Shown: piece after piece, positions 27,356 through 33,113 of the stretch
Layout: each line of letters starts with the position of its first letter
Position numbering within the stretch: position 1 is the stretch's first letter
Assembly (NCBI RefSeq): GCF_003019035.1
Contig: NZ_CP027447.1
Length of the DNA: 64,000 nt
Reading direction: 5' to 3' (one strand)
DNA from: Escherichia coli
GTDB lineage: Bacteria; Pseudomonadota; Gammaproteobacteria; Enterobacterales; Enterobacteriaceae
Notes under the pieces: model-generated
Told to the model about the DNA's origin: nothing
The model's input: the letters and a program-made list of their open reading frames with translations, nothing else
The model's database searches: none
Position numbers and translations under genes: made by a program

Positions 27356-29125
27356 TCAGTTGCCGTTAACAATGCTGATAACGCTGCTGCGGGCCGGCGT
27401 GGTCAGCGTGGCCATGACTTCATCCAGTGCGGCTTCCGGTACGCCGTCCGGGTACTGTGCCGTTAACTGGCGGTAATGTTCCGGCGTCCAGGTAAGGCCG
27501 TCGGCGCTGAACTTATCGCGCAGGGCTTTCGCGGCCTCCACATGAGTCATGGGACGTTGTTCAGTGCGCGGTCTGCGTACATCAGAGGCCTGACCGCGCT
27601 TCGGTATACAGGCCGGAAGTGTGGCGTCATCAATATGTTTATACGGGTCAAGCCGCCCGCCGAACGGCAGCGCCTTCGCCTTGCGTGCGGCAGCTGCATC
27701 TGCGGCGTTGTCTGTACCGGTGACCAGCGCTTCGGTTTCTTTTGCCGCCGTCTGTGCCGGTGTTTCCGGCAGGGCTTTGTAACTTTCGCCAAATACCGCC
27801 GCGCCTTCAGCAAAGCCAAACTCGTTCTTTCTGACCTCTTCGACCAGGAAGAACGTCTCGTGGCCGTCCTCACCGGTCAGAACCACCTGTGCCACATCGC
27901 TGCGCCATGGGTTACGGGTAATCATCAGTTTTTCACCAACCAGTACGCCCGGTACCGTTGATACGTCAAATTCAGTGCCCCGGAACGAGACACGAAGTTT
28001 TGGCGTGACTTTGCGGAGTTCTGGTGTCGTCACAGCCAGTTCACGGCATACCTCAACGGAAGGCGCTTTTTTCAGCTGCTCAGCAGTAATCTTCAGCCAG
28101 ATATCCGTGCGGGTTTTACCGTGGCGGCTGTGAACAGCTGTTGCGTTAAAGTGGCTACGCCATTTCGCGGCCAGCGCGTTGAGTTCTTCCAGACTGTGAA
28201 CCGGCCGGAACTTCAGACCCGGCTCCAGCTTGCGTTCGATAATGTCACGCGCCTTTTCCACCTGTCCGGTGGCGCGGGCGTTATGCGGCTTGTGCGCTAT
28301 CAGGTCGATGCCCAGTGAGCGGCACATGTTTTTCGTCATACCCGCGGTGTTTGCCGAGCCGGGGTCGAGATAGAGTATTTTCGGCACGCCGTGCAGCACG
28401 TCTGCGCCGCCACGCTCCTGCATGGCGTTGATAAGCACAGAACACAGGTTCTCACCGGATTCCGCACCCGTCACATACTCAACGTAAATCCAGCCGCTGG
28501 CATGGTCGGTAATCTCGTAACTCCACACGCGGTCACTGGCGATACGGGCAAGGTTAGCGGGCTTGTTCTTGTAGAACTTCGCGCTGTCCATCACCTGCAG
28601 CCCTTTGTGTCCATTGCTCAGGTAGTAAAGCGTGCAGAGAGAGGCATCAATCTGCCAGACATGATTGGGATGCAGACTGGCCACTTCGGTATGCGGCGCA
28701 GGGGCATCCAGTTGTTCCGGGTGCAGGCCATAGTTACGCAGGGCACGGCTGATAGCATCTTCGGACAACGGGAAAAACTCACCGGTGGTTTCATCTGTTC
28801 TGCCTGCGGAGATAAAGCCGTTAGCCCGCAGGGTTTCCACTGCATCTGCGATGGAATAGAGACGCTTACCGTTCTTGCGGGTGGCCTCACGTAGTGTGGC
28901 AGATATCAGCGCGGCTTCGTCGCGGGTCAGGGCGCTGCGCCCGGCATCGGCGCGTTTTTTGCGTTTATCAGTCACAGAGACCTCCTTCAGCCTGCGCAGC
29001 AGAGTGGCGCGGGACATGCCAAGTTCAGCACAGGCGGCGTCATATATTGCACCACGTTTACCATGCCCCGCGTCACGTGCCGCGCGGGCGACATAAACCA
29101 GTCGTTCAGTCAGGGCAGCATTCAT
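27356..29125 (-). CDS. DDE transposase (Mu A-like)
   Basis: 589 aa; N-terminal HTH-like region, integrase-core motifs (HVWQIDAS, YLDPGSANT). Confidence 0.8.
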   Translation of the reverse strand: MNAALTERLVYVARAARDAGHGKRGAIYDAACAELGMSRATLLRRLKEVSVTDKRKKRADAGRSALTRDEAALISATLREATRKNGKRLYSIADAVETLRANGFISAGRTDETTGEFFPLSEDAISRALRNYGLHPEQLDAPAPHTEVASLHPNHVWQIDASLCTLYYLSNGHKGLQVMDSAKFYKNKPANLARIASDRVWSYEITDHASGWIYVEYVTGAESGENLCSVLINAMQERGGADVLHGVPKILYLDPGSANTAGMTKNMCRSLGIDLIAHKPHNARATGQVEKARDIIERKLEPGLKFRPVHSLEELNALAAKWRSHFNATAVHSRHGKTRTDIWLKITAEQLKKAPSVEVCRELAVTTPELRKVTPKLRVSFRGTEFDVSTVPGVLVGEKLMITRNPWRSDVAQVVLTGEDGHETFFLVEEVRKNEFGFAEGAAVFGESYKALPETPAQTAAKETEALVTGTDNAADAAAARKAKALPFGGRLDPYKHIDDATLPACIPKRGQASDVRRPRTEQRPMTHVEAAKALRDKFSADGLTWTPEHYRQLTAQYPDGVPEAALDEVMATLTTPARSSVISIVNGN

Positions 29126-30053: not shown

Positions 30054-30425
30054 TTACAAACGACTACCTGAAATAACTCGTTGGTTGATTTCGTTAATAC
30101 GATCCTGTGCACGCGCCATCTCGTGACTGTGAGCCATGGCGATCTGTAGTAACTGGATTCCCGGTGCGAAACGTCCGTTCTCTAATTTCATGGCCAGTCC
30201 CTCTTCAATAAGGGTATTAAGTGCTCGATTGATATTCGCCGGGGACTCCCCCAGGGCTGATGCCAGTTCACCGTTAGAAACACCGTTCAGAGCATGACCG
30301 CGTAGAGCTTTGAGTACACGTAGGATGCGGCTCCCGGAACTGGAAATATTTACTTTACTCATGTCACATTTCCATTTTTGCAATATGTGATAACCTGTTG
30401 CATATGTGGAAAATTTATGCCGCAT
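30054..30425 (-). CDS. Putative winged-helix DNA-binding protein
   Basis: SRILRVLKALRGHALNGVSNGELASALGESPANINRALNTLIEEGL resembles MarR/IclR-type wHTH; start uncertain (alternative Met at 30362). Confidence 0.45.
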   Translation of the reverse strand: MRHKFSTYATGYHILQKWKCDMSKVNISSSGSRILRVLKALRGHALNGVSNGELASALGESPANINRALNTLIEEGLAMKLENGRFAPGIQLLQIAMAHSHEMARAQDRINEINQRVISGSRL

Positions 30426-30603
30426 TTGACGTGGGTTTTAATCCCAGTTTTACGGCAATTTCATGGGCTTTGCCGTAACGAGCTTTGGTCTGTCCATTGA
30501 GAACACGATAGACCTCATTGCGGCTGTAGCCGTGTTCTTCGGCCCAGCGGGTAAACGTGATACCACGCTGACGGAAGAGATTTTTAACTTGTTCGGAAGT
30601 CAT
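30415..30603 (-). CDS. Small HTH DNA-binding protein in the Ner position (first gene of the early operon)
   Basis: 62 aa with AGGAG RBS; divergent from the repressor gene. Confidence 0.55.
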   Translation of the reverse strand: MTSEQVKNLFRQRGITFTRWAEEHGYSRNEVYRVLNGQTKARYGKAHEIAVKLGLKPTSNAA

Positions 30604-30689
30604 TGTTGTCTCCTTTGTTGATGCAATGATGTTTGTTTTATATGTGATAGATTATGTGAACTATTGTTCTCATTGTCAATGAGGTTTAT
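30604..30689. promoter_or_regulatory. Divergent early/repressor promoter-operator region
   Basis: 86 bp AT-rich spacer between divergent starts; three direct copies of TATGTGA (30641, 30653, 30687). Confidence 0.55.
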
Positions 30690-31115
30690 GTGAATTTTGA
30701 TTCTCTTTGCGCGTCGCGGTTCAAAGCTGAGCGTTCGCGGTTATCACTCAAGCAGGCTGAAGTAGCAGCCCTTTGTGGCGTTTCAAGAGAAATGTGGGGG
30801 AAATATGAACGAGGGGTTGCTGTTCCCGGAGGTGAGTTACTTGCAGCCTTTGCAAGAATTGGGGCCAATGTACAGTTCATTCTTACCGGGGAGTCATCAG
30901 GTATAACTTTATCACGTGATGAAATGGAGTTACTGCAGCACTACCGGCAAGCACCGTTACAGGTCAAAGGTTCAGTTTTGTCGGCTTTGACTACTGGCTC
31001 CTCCAGAGAACGGGCGGAACAGGTTATTCATGGAGATGTTCTGGGGAATGTTATCAAAGGTAACGTAACCATAGGAACAGGTGGAATAATGAACAAAAAT
31101 ACCAAGAGAAGATGA
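30690..31115 (+). CDS. Prophage repressor (XRE-family HTH)
   Basis: GTG start with GAGG RBS; HTH LSLKQAEVAALCGVSREMWGKYERG; divergent from the transposition operon. Confidence 0.75.
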   Translation: MNFDSLCASRFKAERSRLSLKQAEVAALCGVSREMWGKYERGVAVPGGELLAAFARIGANVQFILTGESSGITLSRDEMELLQHYRQAPLQVKGSVLSALTTGSSRERAEQVIHGDVLGNVIKGNVTIGTGGIMNKNTKRR

Positions 31116-32098
31116 GTAAAGAGAAGCAAACAGTTAACGGGGATGTGGGTAACGTTGTCAGCGGTGATGTTACCATTCATAACTATTCTGCTGACATACT
31201 TCCTTCTGCCCAGCAACCAATTTCGTTGCTGCAAAAACGCGATTTACACAGATTGATGGATGAATTGGTTGATCTGGGGGAAAGTAAGCGCGAGCTATGG
31301 ATGACGATCCACACGAAACTTAATACCAAAACAGTTAATGAAATGACTGCGGCTGATTATCATGGTGCGGTTGAGATCCTTCAGAGATATGCACAACAGA
31401 TCCAGAATATGAAGGACTGTAATCTTCTGGTCAGCAAAATAATGGCGCTTACTGACCCTGGGTATCGTCTTGACCGTGACAGATACTGTCTGAAGCATTT
31501 CGGTACAACCCATCTTAAAGGCCTGGACAAAGAGCAGTTGCAGGCTGTGTTTGGTTATTTTGATGATCTGCTGAATATTCGTGATGAGAGTAAAACTCTA
31601 TCACCTCCATCGGAAAGCGGTGCAAAATCAGTCGCAACTGTACCAACCAGAAGCCGGAAGCCTCATGTAGTAGTGTTGGGGGGAGCGTTAGTTCTTGTAG
31701 CAATATTTTTCGTGGGAATGATTGTGTTCGCTGGTAAATGGGGAAATGCTAAAGCAGTAGCTTCTACTGAAACCAGCGTTTTTAACATTAAAACCAACGA
31801 CAAAATAATAGAAGATTCCATCCCCGCACTGCGCAGCATGTTTCCAGGATTAAATAAGTACTCAGATGATTTCCATTCGGTTTCAAGCTACAAGCAAAAA
31901 ACGGGCTGGCATACCCTTAAATTTACTGTATCAGCAAAGGCATCCGTCCCCGAAAATTATAGTGTTAAGGGCAAGGTTTGTTACATTAACATAAACCCTG
32001 ATGGTAGTTATGCTCGGGTTTTGACTGCTCCATGTCGTTCACTGCTACTTGATCAGCAAAGCACTCCTGACAGTAAGTACCGTTTTATTCTTAAATAG
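31112..32098 (+). CDS. Hypothetical single-pass membrane protein (moron), translationally coupled to the repressor
   Basis: ATGA overlap with the repressor stop; markedly AT-rich; one TM segment (VVVLGGALVLVAIFFVGMIVFAG) between N- and C-terminal domains. Confidence 0.6.
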   Translation: MSKEKQTVNGDVGNVVSGDVTIHNYSADILPSAQQPISLLQKRDLHRLMDELVDLGESKRELWMTIHTKLNTKTVNEMTAADYHGAVEILQRYAQQIQNMKDCNLLVSKIMALTDPGYRLDRDRYCLKHFGTTHLKGLDKEQLQAVFGYFDDLLNIRDESKTLSPPSESGAKSVATVPTRSRKPHVVVLGGALVLVAIFFVGMIVFAGKWGNAKAVASTETSVFNIKTNDKIIEDSIPALRSMFPGLNKYSDDFHSVSSYKQKTGWHTLKFTVSAKASVPENYSVKGKVCYININPDGSYARVLTAPCRSLLLDQQSTPDSKYRFILK

Positions 32099-32410
32099 AA
32101 AATAACAGCTGAATTACCATGGGAGCAGAAAAAAGACAAAGGCGATATCATGCTGCGTTCTAAAATTTTAATGTAAAAGGTGATGAACATGGCAGGGATT
32201 CAGGTTATCGCAGGAAGTTTTCCTAAAGGGTGGGCAAGCATGGGGTTCGGTACCATCGTGTTTGCCACCAATCCATGGAACGATGGGTAATGTCTGCATT
32301 TTCATAATCTGTAAGCCTTTTACAATTATTAAAAATATGGCAGGCTAGTCTGGTCTCGCGAGACTGACTGAACCTCGGTCGGCTCACAGTGCATTCCTGT
32401 GGGACGATGG

Positions 32411-32447
32411 CCAGCCCGGCTTTCGGGTGCCGGGCTGGTCGTTCTTT
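32411..32447 (+). terminator. Putative rho-independent terminator
   Basis: Perfect 10 bp stem ccagcccggc/gccgggctgg with 8 nt loop, followed by tcgttctttc. Confidence 0.5.
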
Positions 32448-32494
32448 CATGATGCGGCAGGGATAGTGGGATTTCTGTTAATGTGGTTTAGGGA

Positions 32495-32710
32495 TTATCC
32501 GGGGTGATTGTCTGCCTTTATCTGGTCCAGGGCATAAGTGATCCCTTCAGCAAAAACAGAAGTATCGAACTGCTTTTGTATTTCCTGAAAATGAACAGTG
32601 GCACGACAGATACTCAGTTCTCCGCGATGTAACCGGATAATATCTTCCAGAACATTGTTCACTGCTTCGGCACGGCGCTGATGTTCTGTTAACGTTAATC
32701 GGGGATTCAT
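32495..32710 (-). CDS. Hypothetical small protein (71 aa)
   Basis: Strong AGGAG RBS 7 nt before ATG. Confidence 0.5.
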   Translation of the reverse strand: MNPRLTLTEHQRRAEAVNNVLEDIIRLHRGELSICRATVHFQEIQKQFDTSVFAEGITYALDQIKADNHPG

Positions 32711-33113
32711 GATGCACTCCTTAAATGATGATTTTTATGTACTCACCGGCAAAATATTCTGCCGATTACTGAACACGCATCCGGCACCTCAGGTTTTGAT
32801 TTATTCTGGTTTTTTCGATATCCCGGACCAGGTTGATCACGACCAGAAAAAGTGCCGGTATTTTATTGATACGCTGATATGGCTTCGGGATAACAGCTAT
32901 ATTCGTTACTCTCAGTTGCTGGCTGTGGGAGCGGCTGATGTCGTCCTCACGGAAAAAACGCTCTGTCTGCTCAATGCCATGCCGACCTTTCTGCAGCCCC
33001 GGCCCGTACCATTTAAAGAGTTGCTTCTGGATGCAGTAAAAACCGGCGAAAATGCAGTCATCGCTGAATGCGTATCCCGGATTATGCGTTACGTGTTTAA
33101 TGAACGTAAGTGA
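32709..33113 (+). CDS. Hypothetical protein (134 aa), uncertain
   Basis: Only long ORF in the 380 bp gap; weak RBS; start overlaps the divergent 71 aa gene and 3' end overlaps the convergent NTPase gene. Confidence 0.3.
   Translation: MMHSLNDDFYVLTGKIFCRLLNTHPAPQVLIYSGFFDIPDQVDHDQKKCRYFIDTLIWLRDNSYIRYSQLLAVGAADVVLTEKTLCLLNAMPTFLQPRPVPFKELLLDAVKTGENAVIAECVSRIMRYVFNERK

Follow-up and report, generated by a model that had tools for sequence, protein, structure and literature searches.

What does the interval of about 400 bp downstream of a prophage repressor operon in Escherichia coli encode? The interval, positions 32099-32494, lies in a 64,000-nucleotide stretch (the window) of contig NZ_CP027447.1 of assembly GCF_003019035.1. 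An earlier note, made from the letters alone, had described it as a structured and apparently non-coding spacer that could hold a terminator plus a small RNA, a small-peptide locus or a protein-binding site. Our comparative analysis gives good support to the conclusion that 32331-32451 on the + strand comprises a putative promoter and an intact gene for a structured RNA of ≈ 100 nt. The RNA belongs to a widespread, apparently uncatalogued family of structured RNAs linked to dam, a phage gene for DNA adenine methylase. Because dam has gone from the window, the copy of the RNA gene that remains here would be an orphan.

The two conspicuous repeats of the spacer were found as the earlier note had given them. 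The palindrome GTCTCGCGAGAC occupies 32353-32364 and is the sole copy in 64 kb even when one mismatch is allowed. The hairpin has 10-nt arms (32411-32420 and 32429-32438) that are 100% complementary, an 8-nt loop and, after it, TCGTTCTTTC. Chance alone would give ≈ 0.1 perfect 12-bp palindromes in ≈ 400 bp (400 × 4^-6), so the presence of one is only mildly improbable. RNA folding and conservation in related phages, which had been proposed as checks, were both positive. The segment 32340-32452 (+) folds at -56.9 kcal/mol (z = -3.76), and 0 of 200 shuffled sequences folded as well. Every relative keeps the block 32306-32451 upstream of dam, with compensatory base changes. Since this conservation extends across many phages, the features of the spacer are far beyond chance.

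To describe the structure, we drew further copies from IMG/VR and from a set holding a single genome for each species (Xenorhabdus, Brenneria, Citrobacter, Salmonella diarizonae, Mixta, Limnobaculum and others) and aligned 31 distinct sequences. RNAalifold returned a 5' stem-loop (SL1) followed by a three-way junction, in which a long-range pairing (P1) encloses two further stem-loops (SL2 and SL3). In this set, for which our search pattern dictated the motifs GTAAGCCTTTT, TCACAG and CTGTGGG, 96% of the cells at paired positions were paired and 19 of the 34 pairs had changed on both sides. None of 500 shuffled alignments reached these values, and slid controls gave 32-49%. As an independent test, a covariance model of the RNA (R1) was run on loci fetched by Dam protein similarity only. 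In the resulting alignment of 53 matches at Dam-anchored loci (A4), which is model-fitted and has slid controls of 37-52%, 33 of the 34 pairs change on both sides and 92% of the cells are paired. Model R1 found one copy only in the window.

Every part of the fold contributes to this result (A4). All six model pairs of SL1 vary on both sides, and divergent copies carry an SL1 that is re-sequenced and still paired (GTCATC with GATGAC at locus L075, GTTCTCG with CGGGAAC at L076). Covariation was found in 11 of 11 pairs of SL2 and in 10 of 10 model pairs of SL3. Among close relatives in the E. coli clade, SL3 can be followed through stepwise changes (C-G to U.G to U-A, and A-U to G-C). P1 covaries as well: the pair 92/202 is GC in 31 sequences, CG in 14 and AU in seven, and the pair 93/201 is AU in 25 and GC in 24. 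The loop of SL2 differs even between near-identical relatives. Taken together, the comparisons show a conserved secondary structure backed by compensatory changes. They also indicate that the RNA is encoded on the + strand: 192 G.U cells fit this strand versus 14 for the other, the consensus energy is -41.5 kcal/mol (+) versus -21.5 kcal/mol (-), and the + strand is the more stable in 31 of 31 sequences. To the right, homology with different flank families ends at ≈ 32451. Beyond this point the relatives carry flanks of at least three unrelated families, and the neighbouring 71-aa open reading frame (ORF) is one of these alternatives, outside the conserved unit.

The transcript is predicted to extend from ≈ 32353 to ≈ 32450, a length of ≈ 98 nt. 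In most members a -10-like hexamer stands 5-8 nt before the first SL1 pair. All of the hexamers picked from A4 have A at position 2 and T at position 6, a regularity that stems in part from the way our script picks them. The window itself has CAGGCT at this place. The -35-like hexamer of the window has the counterparts TTTGCA, TTTCCA or TTTTCA in relatives; no -35 is conserved over the whole family in A4. An alternative -10, AAAAAT at 32331-32336, lies 5-10 nt upstream of CAGGCT, and in phage phi1026b the promoter scan picked TTGCCA-16-TAAACT, one hexamer upstream. With a second candidate -10 just upstream, the start of the RNA can be placed only within 32343-32354. We did not adopt another scan promoter, TTTTCA-16-TACAAT (32299-32326, +), because relatives have TGCAAT, TCCATT or TTCACA there.

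At its 3' end the RNA likely finishes in the pyrimidine-rich tail after P1. The perfect 10-bp stem and the tail UCGUUCUUUC resemble a terminator. As the U-rich tract is largely base-paired in P1, however, the hairpin does not look like a plain terminator. The suggestion of a terminator plus a small RNA is essentially correct, with hairpin and palindrome as stem-loops of one conserved + strand RNA.

The RNA gene is closely tied to dam. It lies directly upstream of, and divergent from, dam in every locus whose Dam protein is at least 81% identical. With model R1 it was also found at this place in most loci with 64-74% Dam identity, where blastn saw nothing, and a second model, R2, recovered more. 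Full-length dam is present in 53 of 57 distinct contexts of the RNA. The carriers include phages of Escherichia, Klebsiella, Citrobacter, Salmonella, Xenorhabdus, Brenneria, Mixta, Burkholderia and Pseudomonas; those of Burkholderia are the siphoviruses phi1026b and phiE125 (phiE125 by near-identical DNA), and that of Pseudomonas is phage Bise. In phi1026b and phiE125 the RNA gene occupies the 142 nt that separate the Rz stop codon from the dam start. The dam and RNA module thus recurs in unrelated phage backbones, at different map positions. Neither the dam-less BcepMu nor Mu, including the region upstream of com-mom, contains the RNA.

What became of dam in the window can be read from the alignments. 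The 15 codons MKMQTLPIVPWIGGK carry the N-terminal motif of D12 methylases, and leftward of them homology stops abruptly. Position 32260, inside dam codon 16, is exactly where nucleotide alignment with dam-bearing relatives begins. The dam frame then runs into unrelated DNA, giving a 45-aa ORF (32168-32305). In the relatives dam is full length and encodes 254-aa proteins of Pfam family PF02086. The window holds codons 1-15 only, and no full-length PF02086 methyltransferase. A typical relative has dam, an unannotated gap of 189 nt and then the 71-aa gene; the Dam start annotated by PGAP is the equivalent of 32305, and GTAAGCCTTTT, at the dam Shine-Dalgarno region, was found in all Dam-anchored close relatives. 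BLAST against 5,426 complete E. coli genomes gave matches in 634 (≈ 12%), nearly all of which begin at 32260 and fall under "DNA adenine methylase". The junction at 32260 is present in only two of the 634 matching genomes, CUVET21 and A24.

Comparison with the prophage of E. coli 12089 and with Escherichia phage PhiKM showed that homology is lost across 30656-32259. Relative to strain 12089, this interval stands in place of a different repressor and the remainder of dam. From these alignments we conclude that the event was a swap of the immunity module, whose right crossover inside dam codon 16 removed dam except for its first 15 codons. The 3' flank of the incoming module, in which we detected no structure or conserved feature, is common only to CUVET21 and A24. 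The orphan copy of the RNA gene occurs with two right flanks, one in the window and CUVET21 and the other in A24. The coordinates of all features are collected in Table 1.

Table 1. Features of the RNA gene, the dam remnant and the neighbouring prophage genes
Feature	Position	Strand	Basis or remark
Whole covariance-model match (promoter-proximal block and RNA)	32331-32451	+	R1, 122.3 bits, E = 1.9e-30; R2, 87.9 bits
-35-like element TTTACA (tentative)	32319-32324	+	16 bp upstream of CAGGCT
-10-like element CAGGCT (putative), homologous to the family hexamer TAnnnT (TAGAAT, TAGGCT, TAAACT, others)	32341-32346	+	Alignment A4
SL1, 5' stem-loop, equal to the 12-bp palindrome; 5-bp stem, CGCG loop	32352-32365	+	Pair mapping
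P1, 5' strand (GA..GAAC); pairs with 32441-32448 and closes the three-way junction	32366-32373	+	RNAalifold
SL2, core stem UCACAG/CUGUGG, hypervariable 7-nt loop (UGCAUUC in the window)	32378-32408	+	RNAalifold and pair mapping
SL3, equal to the perfect hairpin; 12 pairs including G.U	32409-32440	+	Pair mapping
P1, 3' strand (GUUC..UC), and short pyrimidine-rich tail, equal to the U-rich tract	32441-32451	+	RNAalifold and covariation
dam stump, D12-class DNA adenine methylase, first 15 codons MKMQTLPIVPWIGGK	32260-32305	-	Alignment to dam-bearing relatives
dam Shine-Dalgarno region AAAAGG	32316-32321	-	Read from the sequence; overlaps the -35-like element of the RNA promoter
ORF of 33-36 codons, judged a chance product of rearrangement	32180-32290	+	Crosses 32260; 3' third antisense to dam codons 6-15
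3' flank of the incoming immunity module	32099-32259		No homology to dam-bearing relatives
rve transposase, leftward early operon	27356-29125	-	ORFs and family searches
ner-like helix-turn-helix gene	30415-30603	-	ORFs and family searches
Divergent helix-turn-helix repressor, 141 aa	30690-31115	+	ORFs and family searches
328-aa protein, PHROG 10002, second gene after the repressor	31112-32098	+	ORFs and family searches
71-aa ORF, PHROG 4490 (function unknown), convergent with the RNA	32495-32710	-	ORF list and family search
134-aa ORF, PHROG 2266	32709-33113	+	ORF list and family search

How might the RNA act in intact modules? It is tied to dam, it faces away from dam and its promoter abuts the dam ribosome-binding site, so that control of dam in cis is the most economical model. 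A cis role also fits best with linkage to dam alone and with absence from the dam-less BcepMu. We put at roughly 60% the probability of the overall explanation, in which the function is inferred from sequence, that the RNA is an orphan here and that in intact modules it restrains dam or com-dam in cis. The RNA would be transcribed from its own promoter, back-to-back with the dam ribosome-binding region and overlapping it, and would terminate at the pyrimidine-rich tail. Restraint could follow either of two routes. The RNA may be a counter-transcript to a dam mRNA that starts beyond the RNA gene, making a loop-loop contact through SL2 and then a duplex; such dam transcripts could stem from the 71-aa gene in the E. 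coli clade and, in phi1026b, from late read-through. Alternatively, the overlapping divergent promoters may compete or interfere head-on, as in momP1/momP2 of Mu. In the window the cis target would have been lost recently enough for the RNA gene to be undecayed and possibly still transcribed, and transcripts that read through from the repressor operon may end at the 3' structure of the RNA.

Two specific mechanisms were considered and rejected. The SL2 loop of the window has a 6-nt match to the dam start region (UGCAUU with AAUGCA). Because SL2 loops change among relatives that have an identical dam 5' end, this match has arisen by chance. An attenuator on the dam-sense strand, formed by an extended SL1' and then AUAUUUUU, can be drawn in the E. 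coli clade and not in phi1026b.

Several points weigh against restraint of dam in cis. The start, end and expression of the RNA are predictions; the exact -10 is ambiguous (CAGGCT or AAAAAT in the window, TAAACT or TAGAAT in phi1026b), and a simple terminator scan called no SL3 plus tail in the window, phi1026b or E. coli 12089. The predicted start lies ≈ 45 nt upstream of the dam ATG, so the dam ribosome-binding site is not covered. Scans of phi1026b and E. coli 12089 found no sigma-70-like dam-sense promoter between the upstream gene and dam. Lysogens of phi1026b are reported to express dam while the lysis genes just upstream are not expressed (PMC2920897, Table 3): in lysogen RNA-seq, dam (bp27) reached 21,563 reads per kilobase per million (RPKM), and bp28-31 reached 77,000-199,000 RPKM (PMC2920897; our locus L170, 3293-7101). 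These data suggest a dam promoter within the RNA gene or adjoining it, and they show that any silencing of dam by the RNA is incomplete. Moreover, GCCYYGG, GGUCGC, the apical GUGYU..RCAC of SL3 and the elaborate junction are conserved beyond the needs of a plain antisense RNA, and the two right flanks of the orphan copy hint at use that is independent of dam. Given dam expression, the uncovered ribosome-binding site, the lack of a consensus dam promoter and the elaborate fold, a serious rival is an RNA that acts through its fold, in trans or by binding a protein, and travels as cargo with Dam; its partner might be Dam itself, a host factor or a component of host defence. That junction and specific nucleotides are kept from Escherichia to Burkholderia, with Dam down to ≈ 65% identity, that the module moves between unrelated backbones and that the orphan has been retained would all agree with such a role. 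No candidate target or partner was found, however, the dam start region shows no change to compensate for the free variation of the SL2 loop, the RNA is linked to dam alone (the BcepMu backbone that lacks dam also lacks the RNA) and dam-less copies are rare, at two of the 634 matching E. coli genomes. We therefore hold a role of the fold itself to be possible, and clearly less probable than restraint of dam in cis. More doubtful still is the further idea that the RNA is the second component of a mobile "Dam + RNA" cassette, in which it would direct, time or limit methylation through Dam or a host factor, or would serve as an anti-defence decoy.

Three further explanations were considered. If the palindrome were a DNA site for a dimeric regulator of the dam promoter and the hairpin merely a terminator, the site would be centred near -32 of a promoter with the -10 CATATT (32338-32333, -). 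Any RNA stem is also an inverted repeat in DNA, in many members a weak cAnnTT hexamer can be made out on the dam strand within the A/T-rich block by the RNA -10, and there is a precedent in the Mu mom promoter, where an activator is bound to a dyad. The sequence of SL1, though, is replaced wholesale between lineages, and what is kept is the pairing and not a half-site; the many G.U pairs are asymmetric in DNA (29 versus 3 cells in alignment A3). In addition, the palindrome is single-copy in the window, the module is common to phages with unrelated regulators, and SL1 scores within one model with SL2, SL3 and P1. The protein-binding site of the earlier note is thus disfavoured, and we consider this explanation unlikely. 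Slightly less likely again is that the spacer holds merely an intrinsic terminator of the repressor operon, with chance features in recombination junk. The hairpin and its T-rich tail do lie ≈ 350 nt downstream of the 328-aa gene on the same strand, and no other hairpin was seen between them. In nearly all relatives, however, the upstream DNA on the + strand is antisense dam and not a repressor operon, the 120-nt block covaries well beyond the hairpin, the tail is paired in P1 and the terminator scan gave no call. As to the small-peptide locus, the ORF exists as a sequence (36 aa from a GTG, 35 or 33 aa from ATGs), running from 32180 or 32189 to 32290, with an AAGG 3-9 nt upstream of in-frame starts. 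It straddles the rearrangement junction and its last 10 codons, the C-terminal third, are antisense to conserved dam codons, so it is not older than the rearrangement; the configuration is found in only two of the listed E. coli genomes and conservation at the family level is impossible. We give a micro-protein gene hardly any credence. The statement that the spacer has no convincing ORF over 60 codons needs a correction to the letter, as a 75-aa ORF runs on the - strand (32223-32450); we rejected it as coding, since 26 of 37 relatives lack its start codon and in another six the frame shrinks to 21-33 codons.

We compared the RNA with known families and systems. Searches of Rfam 15 returned no family at the gathering cut-off or at E ≤ 10 for the window, and none at gathering for 20 diverse relatives; a search of the window for tRNA and tmRNA genes returned none. 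A ribozyme or tRNA-like element was also rejected: by eye there is no conserved single-stranded junction core, the apical loop of SL3 has 6 and not 7 nt, and neither Rfam nor ARAGORN gave a match. At permissive settings the nearest family, ctRNA_pGA1 (RF00236), came close to its cut-off only in Burkholderia members: it matched the phi1026b-type loci L124 and L129 at 2349-2427, within the phage RNA adjoining dam, with 44.4 bits against a cut-off of 45, 0.6 bit below gathering (E = 1.5e-5 in a 65-kb search). It scored locus L087 at 29.5 bits, and the window copy gave no match at E ≤ 10. Neither the window, L124, L129, L087 nor the 20 diverse loci therefore enter RF00236 by its gathering cut-off. 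The likeness consists of two hairpins and a U-rich tail: SL2, SL3 and the tail of L124 align to model positions 1-79, and the same helices are present in the window. In both, a 3-bp base, an internal loop, a 7-bp stem and a 7-nt loop are followed by a long GC-rich hairpin and a pyrimidine or U tail, and in both a small RNA lies opposite the leader or start region of a neighbouring gene. ctRNA_pGA1 is the counter-transcript controlling rep in the Corynebacterium plasmid pGA1, whereas the phage RNA accompanies dam or com-dam, with no rep and no plasmid, has an extra SL1 and the covarying long-range P1 pairing of its tail, and occurs in hosts among the Proteobacteria. Homology of the two is unproven, and the similarity may be convergent.

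Two-stem-loop cis-antisense RNAs are familiar from plasmids and phages, including FinP/traJ, CopA/repA, RNA-OUT/IS10, P22 sar and lambda OOP. The dam-linked RNA would resemble them as a short, stable and hairpin-rich RNA with a constitutive-looking promoter, directed against the 5' region of a gene that is harmful when over-expressed. The loops of such RNAs are free to vary, because the target is their own complement. As predicted, the dam-linked RNA differs from the FinP/CopA type in that it misses the dam ribosome-binding site, and its three-way junction is unusual for the class. Mu com-mom offers another parallel: a DNA-modification gene at a variable or terminal position, a Com-type ORF before dam in part of the family and a divergent promoter that abuts the operon. 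In Mu, momP1 and momP2 are overlapping divergent promoters with competition or interference, and Com is a translational activator. The enzyme here, however, is a D12 Dam and not Mom, Mu lacks this RNA and the clade of the window lacks com. Further, we know of no product of momP2, whereas the predicted divergent transcript on the dam side is under strong structural selection. Terminators at moron boundaries (Hendrix-type) have been discussed for Burkholderia phages (PMC2920897). As in those, a hairpin marks the exchange point of mosaic modules, and the dam unit of phi1026b acts as an independently expressed moron; the difference is that a whole RNA gene here faces away from dam, in place of a terminator after a cargo gene.

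Some observations concern the dam side of the module. In part of the family, an ORF for a Com-type zinc-ribbon protein (PF10122) stands between the RNA promoter and dam and forms a com-dam operon (L098, 2334-2483); at L106 (2303-3250), the Com-type ORF is fused in frame to dam. The deposited Dam coding sequence of PhiKM (L001, 3282-4136) has ≈ 30 codons too many and extends across the RNA gene. We regard this N-terminal extension through the palindrome as an annotation artefact, since the Pfam domain begins at residue 41 and both PGAP and the Klebsiella phage KP12 record start 30 codons later. In phage Bise (L171), a convergent reverse-transcriptase gene (1543-2574) stops 49 nt short of the 3' end of the RNA gene (2623-2746), and dam lies ≈ 190 nt beyond the 5' end of the RNA. 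A retron was rejected, as reverse transcriptase stands beside the module in Bise only and was found neither in the region of the window nor in the relatives inspected or phi1026b. A GATC site recurs ≈ 43-44 nt upstream of the model start in many members, where the window has CCAATCC. This site lies in the W-I-G codons of dam (TGG ATC GG) and owes its presence to coding and not to regulation; control of the promoters by Dam sites was likewise rejected, because GATC is not enriched (0.5 per sequence versus 0.72 expected).

The window is a BcepMu-like (Bcepmuvirus-type) transposable prophage. Its ORFs and family searches gave the Bcepmuvirus-type gene order, which is matched by PhiKM (classified as Bcepmuvirus), the KP12 record, E. 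coli prophages and BcepMu. The leftward early operon also encodes a DUF3102 protein and an IclR-type helix-turn-helix protein on the - strand. Past the 134-aa ORF there is a 247-aa ORF on the - strand, and then holin, SLT endolysin and terminase genes on the + strand. The immunity module at 30656-32259, with the repressor and the 328-aa PHROG 10002 protein, is unlike that of most E. coli relatives and takes the place of their repressor and dam. The counterpart of this pair in BcepMu is gp17-gp18, a repressor and a membrane protein. In PhiKM the interval between the ner-like gene and dam (L001, 2716-3105) holds a 41-aa ORF only and no annotated repressor, and the immunity region of PhiKM seems reduced relative to those of the window and KP12. 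On the other side of the RNA gene, the CUVET21 prophage, close as it otherwise is, lacks most of the 134-aa ORF (32763-33080), which is present in strain 12089. This segment is a small presence/absence cassette that overlaps the start of the 71-aa gene.

The message of the window itself is modest: what was called a spacer is a recombination scar beside an apparently orphaned RNA gene. The wider interest lies in the intact modules. In the literature on BcepMu, on phiE125 and phi1026b, on phage methyltransferases with antisense or small RNAs and on ctRNA_pGA1, we found no description of a dam-linked RNA. As no Rfam 15 family was reached at its cut-off, the RNA is a candidate for a new family; alternatively, ctRNA_pGA1 may have unrecognised phage relatives, and other family members that do pass the cut-off may be filed in databases as plasmid ctRNA. 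The RNA gene also corrects the annotated start of PhiKM Dam. Orphan Dam methylases carried by phages alter host epigenetics, mismatch repair and the evasion of restriction, and to our knowledge little is known of how they are controlled, Mu mom aside. Control of such a methylase by an RNA would be directly testable by simple genetics. If the "Dam + RNA" cassette were true, it would be a new functional RNA class that temperate phages have spread through beta- and gamma-proteobacteria, and it would account for the survival of an intact copy here without dam.

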